From: Pseudomonas phage phi9_PA9
Direction: 5' to 3' (one strand)
Sequence record: PQ093904.1
DNA: 64,000 bases
The translations under genes and the position numbers were made by a program. The notes beneath the pieces are model-generated. The model had not been told where the DNA came from, ran no database searches, and saw only the letters and a program-made list of their open reading frames with translations. Position 1 is the first letter of the stretch. The number at the start of each line of letters is the position of its first letter. Positions 21,876 to 22,009 of the stretch are shown here, one piece after another.

Positions 21876-21962
21876 TGGCTGGTAAGGTAGGATTCGAACC
21901 TACGGTGGGCTTTCGCCAACGGATTAACAGTCCGCTCCCTGCTACCACTCGGGTACTTACCA
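21876..21962 (-). tRNA. type-II (long variable arm) tRNA with apparent GUU anticodon and G73 (tRNA-Tyr-like scaffold with Asn identity)
   Basis: Hand fold, 87 nt. Acceptor TGGTAAG/CTTACCA, discriminator G then CCA. D-arm CCC-GAGTGGTAGCA-GGG. Anticodon stem GCGGA/TCCGT with loop CTGTTAA. 15-nt variable arm. T-arm GTAGG-TTCGAAT-CCTAC. Closely parallels E. coli tRNA-Tyr except for A36 to T. Confidence 0.55.
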
Positions 21963-21965
21963 ATG

Positions 21966-22009
21966 AAATCGTAAAAGTCACTTGCTCTACCGACTGAGCT
22001 ATCACGGAA
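21966..22009 (-). pseudogene. truncated tRNA-Lys-like 5' fragment (acceptor strand, D-arm and anticodon loop CTTTTAC, no T-arm)
   Basis: TCCGTGA-TA-GCTCAGTCGGTAGAGC-A-AGTGA-CTTTTAC then no complementary 3' half. Confidence 0.4.

Follow-up and report, generated by a model that had tools for sequence, protein, structure and literature searches.

In bacteria, the tRNAs with a long variable arm (class II) are, by the textbook, those for leucine, serine, tyrosine and selenocysteine. The window analyzed here, a 64,000-nucleotide (nt) stretch of Pseudomonas phage phi9_PA9 (PQ093904.1), holds a minus-strand gene at 21876–21962 that joins such an arm to the asparagine anticodon GUU. What kind of tRNA is this? 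A sequence-only reading had seen in it either a tRNA-Tyr that drifted into an asparagine decoder or a mis-acylated, suppressor-like species, and had taken a half-tRNA immediately upstream for the remnant of a tRNA-Lys gene. Our analysis instead points to a functional phage tRNA-Asn(GUU) whose class, marked by the long variable arm, is found widely among phages. We give this reading a probability of about two in three.

The window tRNA and its family

ARAGORN calls the gene as an 87-nt tRNA-Asn(gtt), and the Rfam tRNA model (RF00005) scores it at 55.8 bits with an E-value of 4.7e-10, far above the gathering score of 29. Both the program and the covariance alignment place CUGUUAA (21924–21930) as the anticodon loop, with GUU at 21926–21928, confirming the anticodon first proposed and marking the gene as a genuine tRNA. 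The minimum free energy fold is a five-armed cloverleaf. Its acceptor stem, UGGUAAG/CUUACCA, pairs 21956–21962 with 21880–21886 and begins with U1-A72 (U at 21962, A at 21880); the discriminator is G73 (21879), and the CCA end is encoded (21876–21878). The 15-nt variable region at 21904–21918, UGGCGAAAGCCCACC, divides as U-GGC-GAAA-GCC-CACC and forms a hairpin of three base pairs (bp) under a GNRA tetraloop. The D stem is likewise 3 bp long, and the D loop is enlarged.

Sequencing error can be excluded because the 137-nt block comprising the tRNA and the fragment upstream of it is 100% identical in four independent GenBank genomes, those of Pseudomonas phages OMKO1, Churi, fMGyn-Pae01 and HUST_1. 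A misread anticodon is further ruled out by the GUU found in every member of the family described below. Across positions 21700–22300, the window is 94.8% identical to these four phages and about 91% identical to phiKZ, which places its source, on these alignments, within the OMKO1/Churi clade of phiKZ-like Pseudomonas jumbo phages.

Like canonical type I tRNA-Asn, represented by E. coli asnT and by the phiKZ copy beside tRNA-Asp, the window tRNA has the CUGUUAA loop with G34-U35-U36, G73, U1-A72 and CCA, and it occupies the same slots in phiKZ-like genomes; its decoding role is presumably the same. The claim of a type II tRNA with an asparagine identity set (GUU and G73) is thus borne out, and we add to that set U1-A72, the pair on which GatCAB recognition depends where Asn-tRNA is made by the indirect pathway. 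Bacterial tRNA-Asn, however, is of type I, with a variable loop of 4–5 nt and no extra bases in the D loop. The window tRNA has a 15-nt GNRA-capped region in place of a 5-nt loop, along with its short D stem and enlarged D loop, and is 62% identical to the phage canonical tRNA-Asn. It resembles bacterial tRNA-Tyr in its class II architecture, in having CCCGAG..GGGA as its D arm and in the length class of its variable region (about 13–15 nt), and pairwise alignment gives 68% identity to the E. coli gene (whose reference sequence was confirmed by megablast). It lacks the GUA anticodon, A73 and G1-C72 of tRNA-Tyr: U36 stands in place of A36, G73 in place of A73 and U1-A72 in place of G1-C72, and these are the positions that define tyrosine versus asparagine identity. 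Nor does it belong with tRNA-Ser or the allo-tRNAs, in which G73 accompanies an arm of about 16–23 nt with a stem of at least 5 bp, compared to 15 nt and 3 bp here.

The window gene does fit a viral family of long-arm tRNA-Asn(GUU), which we defined by GUU, G73 and a variable region of 11–21 nt forming a 2–5-bp, mostly GNRA-capped stem. Two pattern scans of IMG/VR, one demanding a GAAAG loop and the other a long variable region only, each returned at least 120 matches, and ARAGORN then recognized at least 181 distinct GUU tRNAs of at least 80 nt. Among phage isolates, relatives annotated as tRNA-Asn occur in Psa21 (88 nt), PA1C-like phages and Y1-MI, an unrelated 93-kb phage of P. fluorescens. 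An 83-nt form in T5-like phages (Demerecviridae) is annotated as tRNA-Asn in 291 GenBank records, and T4-like Serratia and Erwinia phages have an 84-nt form adjoining a genuine 89-nt tRNA-Tyr. These 83–84-nt genes share GUU, G73 and a short GAAA-capped hairpin with the window tRNA but have G1-C72, and their D arms and acceptor stems differ from its own.

The same pattern appears in only 50 stretches of bacterial and archaeal genomes covering 185,579 species, so the family is strongly enriched in viruses. These stretches fall into three groups: tRNA arrays or prophage-like contigs, Flavobacterium copies and solitary Solirubrobacterales genes. The last are 83–85 nt in length and encode a long-arm tRNA-Asn(GUU) that has both U1-A72 and G73. 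The chromosomal contigs that carry them (L132, L133, L137, L141, L149, L160–L162, L165, L166 and L172–L174) reach 2.8 Mb, and these genes are apparently the cellular tRNA-Asn of that order. The Flavobacteriaceae copies are a phenomenon distinct from the viral family. They are extra canonical tRNA-Asn genes, lying beside normal ones, with an 18-nt palindrome (CCCCGAAAGCTTTCGGGG) in the variable loop (L134 6081–6168, L153 2766–2853, L164 4706–4912 and L135 1621–1707), and in several of them the T or acceptor arm has decayed.

The family is under tRNA-like structural selection, and all helices covary. In an alignment of 92 sequences, 97.1% of cells in the four standard helices are paired, and shuffling lowers this share to 63.9%. 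Covariation scores 0.826, whereas shuffles give 0.18 and slid controls 0.10–0.17, and none of 500 shuffles reaches the observed value. MAFFT misaligned the variable arms; its alignment was therefore limited to the four standard helices, and pairing in the arm was counted on GNRA-anchored coordinates. By this count, the variable region forms a stem of 2–5 bp with 86 distinct sequences and GAAA, GUAA or GCAA loops. The stem is GNRA-capped in 145 of 181 members, and its third layer is paired in 82%, compared to 45% in shuffles.

Acceptor identity and the Tyr-like body

To place the acceptor end, we compared tRNAs of different isotypes from the same viral contigs. Long-arm tRNA-Asn genes have U1-A72 in 139 of 186 cases (75%) and G73 in 173 of 186 (93%), and the type I tRNA-Asn genes have them in 25 and 37 of 42, respectively. 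By contrast, tRNA-Tyr has G1-C72 (63/71) and A73 (70/71), tRNA-Leu has A73 (194/197) and tRNA-Ser has G1-C72 (103/122) and a variable region with a mode of 18 nt, compared to 13–15 nt in long-arm tRNA-Asn. The acceptor identity of the family is therefore that of tRNA-Asn, not of Tyr, Ser or Leu.

The first base pair varies with the phage group. All long-arm tRNA-Asn genes of Pseudomonas phages (phiKZ-like, PA1C, Psa21 and Y1-MI) have U1-A72 within a common acceptor strand, UGGUAAG. Those of Enterobacterales phages have G1-C72, and Enterobacterales hosts have AsnRS. This enzyme recognizes the anticodon and G73, and non-discriminating AspRS uses the same elements (PMC9976931, PMC2811023). Bacterial GatCAB requires U1-A72; both G1-C72 and additional bases in the D loop act against it (PMC2811023, PMC9976931).

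The body of the tRNA tells a different story from its ends. The proposed resemblance to tRNA-Tyr holds for the phiKZ subfamily: besides the higher identity to E. coli tRNA-Tyr than to canonical tRNA-Asn, of the 50 non-Asn tRNAs closest to it in a set of about 2300, 18 are tRNA-Tyr, with top identities of 0.71. In nearest-neighbor analysis, D arms elsewhere in the family come nearest to those of Ser, Leu, Cys or Lys tRNAs, and 53 of 181 members have a 4-bp D stem like that of type I tRNAs. An Erwinia-phage group has a GAGC-GAAA-GCUC hairpin in the variable loop and, as we take it, resembles the enterobacterial type I tRNA-Asn (E. coli asnT) with an inserted hairpin. The long arm is thus borne on Tyr-like, Leu-like, Ser-like and type-I-Asn-like bodies. 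Because the bodies are so heterogeneous, a single drift from Tyr to Asn is inadequate to explain the family, and the mixed D-arm neighbors gave no support to a single Tyr origin. The arm would either have been gained several times or have spread by recombination of modules. Likewise, the suggestion of an isolated drift product or suppressor-like oddity does not survive the finding of at least 181 distinct phage members with mixed bodies and an Asn-type acceptor identity.

When the window tRNA was compared by BLASTN with 5,426 E. coli genomes, no relative turned up on a chromosome and the only hits were weak plasmid matches annotated as tRNA-Lys; a search of the plasmid collection for a Pseudomonas host tRNA-Asn gave no match. 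The plasmids in question are about 5.7 kb (e.g., NZ_CP032883.1, 5401–5432), and the variable and T arms of their tRNA-Lys match window-tRNA positions 47–77 with an E-value of about 9, perhaps by chance.

Could the body, rather than the anticodon, determine the amino acid? Allo-tRNAs and the nematode class II nev-tRNAs also combine class II architecture with an anticodon foreign to Leu, Ser and Tyr, and they are charged according to their body, with Ser or Leu, and hence recode. By analogy, the window tRNA might be charged by TyrRS or SerRS, or be left as Asp-tRNA after rejection by GatCAB, and so insert a residue other than asparagine at AAU and AAC. Its Tyr-like body fits such a scheme, as do a G73 that is also the discriminator of tRNA-Ser and a D loop and variable region unlike those GatCAB is known to accept. 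However, the A73 and G1-C72 that are nearly universal in Tyr tRNAs of the same contigs are absent, and the 3-bp variable stem is shorter than the arm of tRNA-Ser and too short for recognition of the SerRS type, which makes mis-acylation unlikely. Whereas allo-tRNAs and nev-tRNAs follow their bodies, the acceptor elements here match the asparagine anticodon, and the complete Asn/Asp identity set is kept across the family. Moreover, the long-arm gene is the only phage tRNA-Asn copy in OMKO1, the window and PA1C, and the phage would pay dearly for missense at 6% of codons across its proteome. We consider recoding highly improbable.

Charging, codon supply and the extra arm

If the gene is instead a working tRNA-Asn, how would it be charged in this host? 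P. aeruginosa has no direct asparaginylation. It makes Asn-tRNA indirectly, with a non-discriminating AspRS and with GatCAB as the Asp-tRNA amidotransferase (PMC2330236). The window tRNA contains every nucleotide known to be required by these two enzymes, namely GUU, G73 and U1-A72. We propose that it would be co-transcribed with the neighboring tRNA-Asp and cut at U1 by RNase P, freeing a 46-nt leader that includes the dead half-tRNA. The half-tRNA would be simply a part of that leader, and the predicted fold of the whole precursor leaves the cloverleaf intact. Reading G34, U35, U36 and G73, the host AspRS would then aspartylate the tRNA, and GatCAB, which needs U1-A72, would amidate the product to Asn-tRNA.

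The charged tRNA would read AAU and AAC, which are abundant in this phage of 37% G+C: the window uses 62.7 asparagine codons per 1000, 44.9 of them AAU. Other tRNAs of the phage match the frequent codons UUA, ACA and CCA, and codons of all these types are rare in the host, which has 66% G+C. As a group, the phiKZ tRNAs are expressed and co-sediment with 30S fractions (PMC8545117). An abundant phiKZ noncoding RNA of about 100 nt found by Grad-seq in the same study is not the window tRNA, as it sits between PHIKZ298 and PHIKZ297 (PMC8545117). Its position, where the RNA derives from a 3' untranslated region, corresponds in the window to 20538–20783 on the minus strand, between the homologues of those two genes.

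Several points weigh against a working tRNA-Asn. We infer the expression, maturation and charging of the window copy, as well as its benefit to the phage, from its sequence and its relatives. GatCAB reads the D loop and rejects extra bases there, and its tail domain adjoins the variable loop (PMC2811023); the window tRNA, whose D stem has only 3 bp, whose D loop is enlarged and which bears the extra arm, may be a poor substrate for amidation. The gene is also absent from 29 of 47 phiKZ-like phage records and is therefore dispensable. Finally, codon supply gives no reason for an extra arm.

The arm itself nevertheless seems to matter. It sits on unrelated bodies, it is enriched in viruses and in some phages short and long versions occur together, which suggests that the arm is under selection. 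Both versions of tRNA-Asn are present in phiKZ and Churi, and Xanthomonas phage X1 has short and long versions of both Asn and Lys as well as a second, 80-nt tRNA-Asp. GAAA-capped long arms also occur on tRNA-Thr(UGU) of 87 nt and tRNA-Lys(UUU/CUU) of 88–91 nt, with examples in T5-like phages (L011 and L081), L136, L205, CcrColossus (L260 700–789) and X1 (L261 684–772).

One possible explanation for such selection is defense. A tRNA that decodes asparagine on a divergent body with an extra arm could be a poor substrate for nucleases that attack the host tRNA-Asn, such as the AriB-like Toprim nuclease of PARIS or anticodon nucleases of the colicin E5 or pyocin type, and phage translation would continue once the host tRNA was cut. 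This idea extends the tRNA-Asn reading rather than excluding it. AriB cuts the tRNAs for Lys (UUU), for Thr (UGU) and for Asn (GUU) at positions 40/41 while contacting D-loop positions 16/17, and phage tRNAs rescue infection against PARIS (PMC12409363). The variable arm would emerge between that cleavage site and the D loop, and the isoacceptors with GAAA-capped arms in phages include Lys and Thr. The recurrence of the arm on four kinds of body and the viral enrichment of the family (at least 120 matches per scan compared to 50 stretches in 185,579 species) are also in its favor.

The parallel with known anti-defense tRNAs is nonetheless incomplete. The T5 tRNAs that counter PARIS (Lys, Thr and Asn) or retron-Eco7 (Tyr) resemble the window gene in that they duplicate a host isoacceptor targeted by defense, in one case tRNA-Asn(GUU) itself. 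However, published resistance comes from type I tRNAs in which bases of the anticodon stem-loop and the D loop are substituted (PMC12409363), and no role of the variable arm has been reported in published work. The T5 tRNA-Asn used in the PARIS rescue is a type I tRNA of 78 nt, so we rejected that rescue as functional evidence for the long-arm class, whose case is one of analogy. The window tRNA shares its anticodon stem, UAAUC|C, with the E. coli tRNA-Asn cleaved by AriB, so the cleavage site is unmutated. Long arms also occur at low frequency across many isotypes, beyond the targets of AriB, and the apparently cellular Solirubrobacterales gene would need a separate rationale. On balance, we regard protection from nucleases as a plausible but rather unlikely reason for the arm.

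Stated in full, this proposal would be that a short GNRA-capped arm was added by phages, time and again and on several unrelated bodies, to tRNA-Asn and less often to tRNA-Lys, tRNA-Thr and tRNA-Asp. Such an arm would hide the tRNA from immune nucleases without barring it from AspRS or AsnRS, from GatCAB, from EF-Tu or from the ribosome. We treat this wider version as speculative and with the same reserve. If true, it would define a structural "armor" class of anti-defense tRNAs and add tRNA-Asn, including the cellular one of Solirubrobacterales, to bacterial class II.

For the window alone, the result is modest: this is a known tRNA of the phiKZ family, annotated as tRNA-Asn in the phiKZ GenBank record and in many others. 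The locus is ordinary once explained, and the long-arm class is moderately surprising and readily testable. Asparagine becomes a fifth long-arm identity, which hundreds of phage genomes and, apparently, a single bacterial order carry under the plain annotation tRNA-Asn. Papers on phiKZ count six tRNAs and pass over the second Asn (PMC8244752), and we found no description of a long-arm tRNA-Asn in the full-text literature, a search that did not cover subscription-only work such as the T5 tRNA sequencing of the 1980s. The class raises the question of how an additional arm is accommodated by class IIb synthetases and by the GatCAB transamidosome, which matters because the GatB tail domain adjoins the variable loop. 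It also raises the questions of whether phages use tRNA architecture, beyond point mutations in the anticodon loop, to evade tRNA-targeting immunity, and of how tRNA alleles are swapped in phage tRNA clusters.

The upstream half-tRNA and exchange between sites

The last of these questions can be approached through the half-tRNA beside the window gene. This remnant, at 21972–22008 on the minus strand, contains the 5' strand of an acceptor stem, a D arm, the 5' strand of an anticodon stem and a loop up to A37. Its anticodon loop, CUUUUAC, is Lys-like at face value. However, the remnant matches positions 1–37 of the canonical type I tRNA-Asn of phiKZ and SL2 at 36 of 37 positions, the single difference being G34 to U at 21975. 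The phiKZ copy of the half still reads ...GACUGUUA, with the loop CUGUUA, and is equal to canonical positions 1–37. The sequence-only reading was thus right that the fragment records turnover of tRNA genes and mistaken in its identity: the "Lys half" is the scar of a canonical tRNA-Asn gene. The motif occurs once in the window, where no 3' half of a canonical tRNA-Asn was found.

Relatives indicate what probably once stood here. Phages like phiKZ have two sites for tRNA-Asn, site A beside tRNA-Asp and site B between PHIKZ297 and PHIKZ296. In phiKZ, site A holds a canonical 76-nt tRNA-Asn and site B the composite of half-tRNA and 87-nt long-arm gene. SL2 has the canonical gene at both sites, with site B intact behind the same upstream flank, whereas Churi has the composite at site A and the canonical gene at site B. 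Site B is empty in OMKO1 and in the window, where the composite occupies site A, and PA1C has only a composite at site B, in which the half is more decayed. The long-arm and canonical genes thus behave as interchangeable alleles.

Between the remnant and the tRNA lies a 9-nt junction, CGAUUUCAU (21963–21971, minus strand), which is identical at phiKZ site B. Other family members are preceded by similar A/T-rich leaders ending in tttcat or aattat, and the junction is probably the native leader of an incoming cassette. Because relatives keep an intact canonical gene at the same sites, the simplest reading of these sequences is that a cassette of the 9-nt leader and the long-arm tRNA replaced positions 38–76 of the canonical gene. 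The terminator would have come in with it, and composite and canonical alleles would later have been exchanged between the two paralogous sites by recombination through their shared flanks.

Similar arrangements occur elsewhere. In Bacteroidota-phage contigs (L046, L108, L131 and L086), a truncated type I 5' part, UCCUCAG-UAGCUCAGUUGGUAGAGCG-CACC, lies directly upstream of a long-arm tRNA-Asn; this U1-initiated half is independent of the phiKZ case, and the long-arm gene behind it (L046, L108 and L131) is a different one. T5-like phages alternate between the two types at one locus. T5 (L257 5953–6525) has T5.069, an open reading frame with a T5orf172/MUG113 domain, between tRNA-Cys and its type I 78-nt tRNA-Asn, whereas AKFV33 (L004 493–700) has the 83-nt long-arm gene directly after tRNA-Cys, with a 3' flank identical to that of T5. 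In Psa21, an HNH endonuclease gene adjoins the long-arm tRNA-Asn. Together, these cases suggest that swaps of tRNA-Asn alleles are recurrent and linked to endonucleases.

Such linkage raises the possibility that the long-arm gene is itself a relic or a selfish passenger, a tRNA-like sequence retained only because mobile endonuclease cassettes keep it in tRNA clusters. Its variable presence among close relatives would agree with this, as would the endonuclease genes next to tRNA-Asn alleles in Psa21 (HNH) and T5 (T5orf172 domain). Yet no lineage has lost the cloverleaf, compensatory changes occur all through it, and the identity nucleotides and CCA are conserved. The true relic at this locus, the adjacent half-tRNA, is visibly decaying downstream of its D arm, unlike the long-arm gene. 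We therefore find a passive passenger scarcely credible and retain the interpretation of the long-arm gene as a functional tRNA-Asn.

ARAGORN finds six tRNAs in the window, each of them encoded by the minus strand: Thr(UGU), Asn(GUU), Asp(GUC), Met, Pro(UGG) and Leu(UAA). The upstream neighbor in the cluster is tRNA-Asp(GUC) at 22015–22091, called by ARAGORN and Rfam and supported by phiKZ-like relatives; judged from these genomes, Asp followed by Asn is the ancestral pairing at this site. Downstream, at 21845–21869 on the minus strand, a terminator-like hairpin, AAAGAGUAGC-UUCG-GCUACUCUUU, is followed by a run of U's. The same hairpin lies 3' of the canonical tRNA-Asn in phiKZ and 3' of the long-arm tRNA in PA1C, and it is obvious despite its absence from the output of a consensus terminator scan. 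Upstream of tRNA-Asp, the minus-strand motif TATGTAATACTATG (22115–22128) may be a phage promoter that serves the Asp-Asn unit. Motifs like it stand directly upstream of the long-arm tRNA in L091, L020 and Psa21; within the window alone, a search for motifs of this type gave 2 matches compared to 1.4 expected, which is not significant.

Other tRNA-related features turned up in the same genomes. The T5 annotation includes a "tRNA amidotransferase" (T5.081). In SL2 (L258), at about 3424–3498 on the plus strand, the 5' part of tRNA-Pro is joined through shared T-arm sequence to the 3' end of tRNA-Asp, a fusion that removes the PHIKZ301-Met-300-299.1-299 block and is not called by ARAGORN. Psa21 (L005 2400–3000) has a long structured stretch at whose end stand a T arm and an acceptor strand like those of a tRNA, with CCA (ggttcaattccttccttcatccacca), and which is followed by a dubious ARAGORN call of tRNA-Gly(acc). 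This stretch could be an interrupted or intron-containing tRNA or another tRNA-like RNA.

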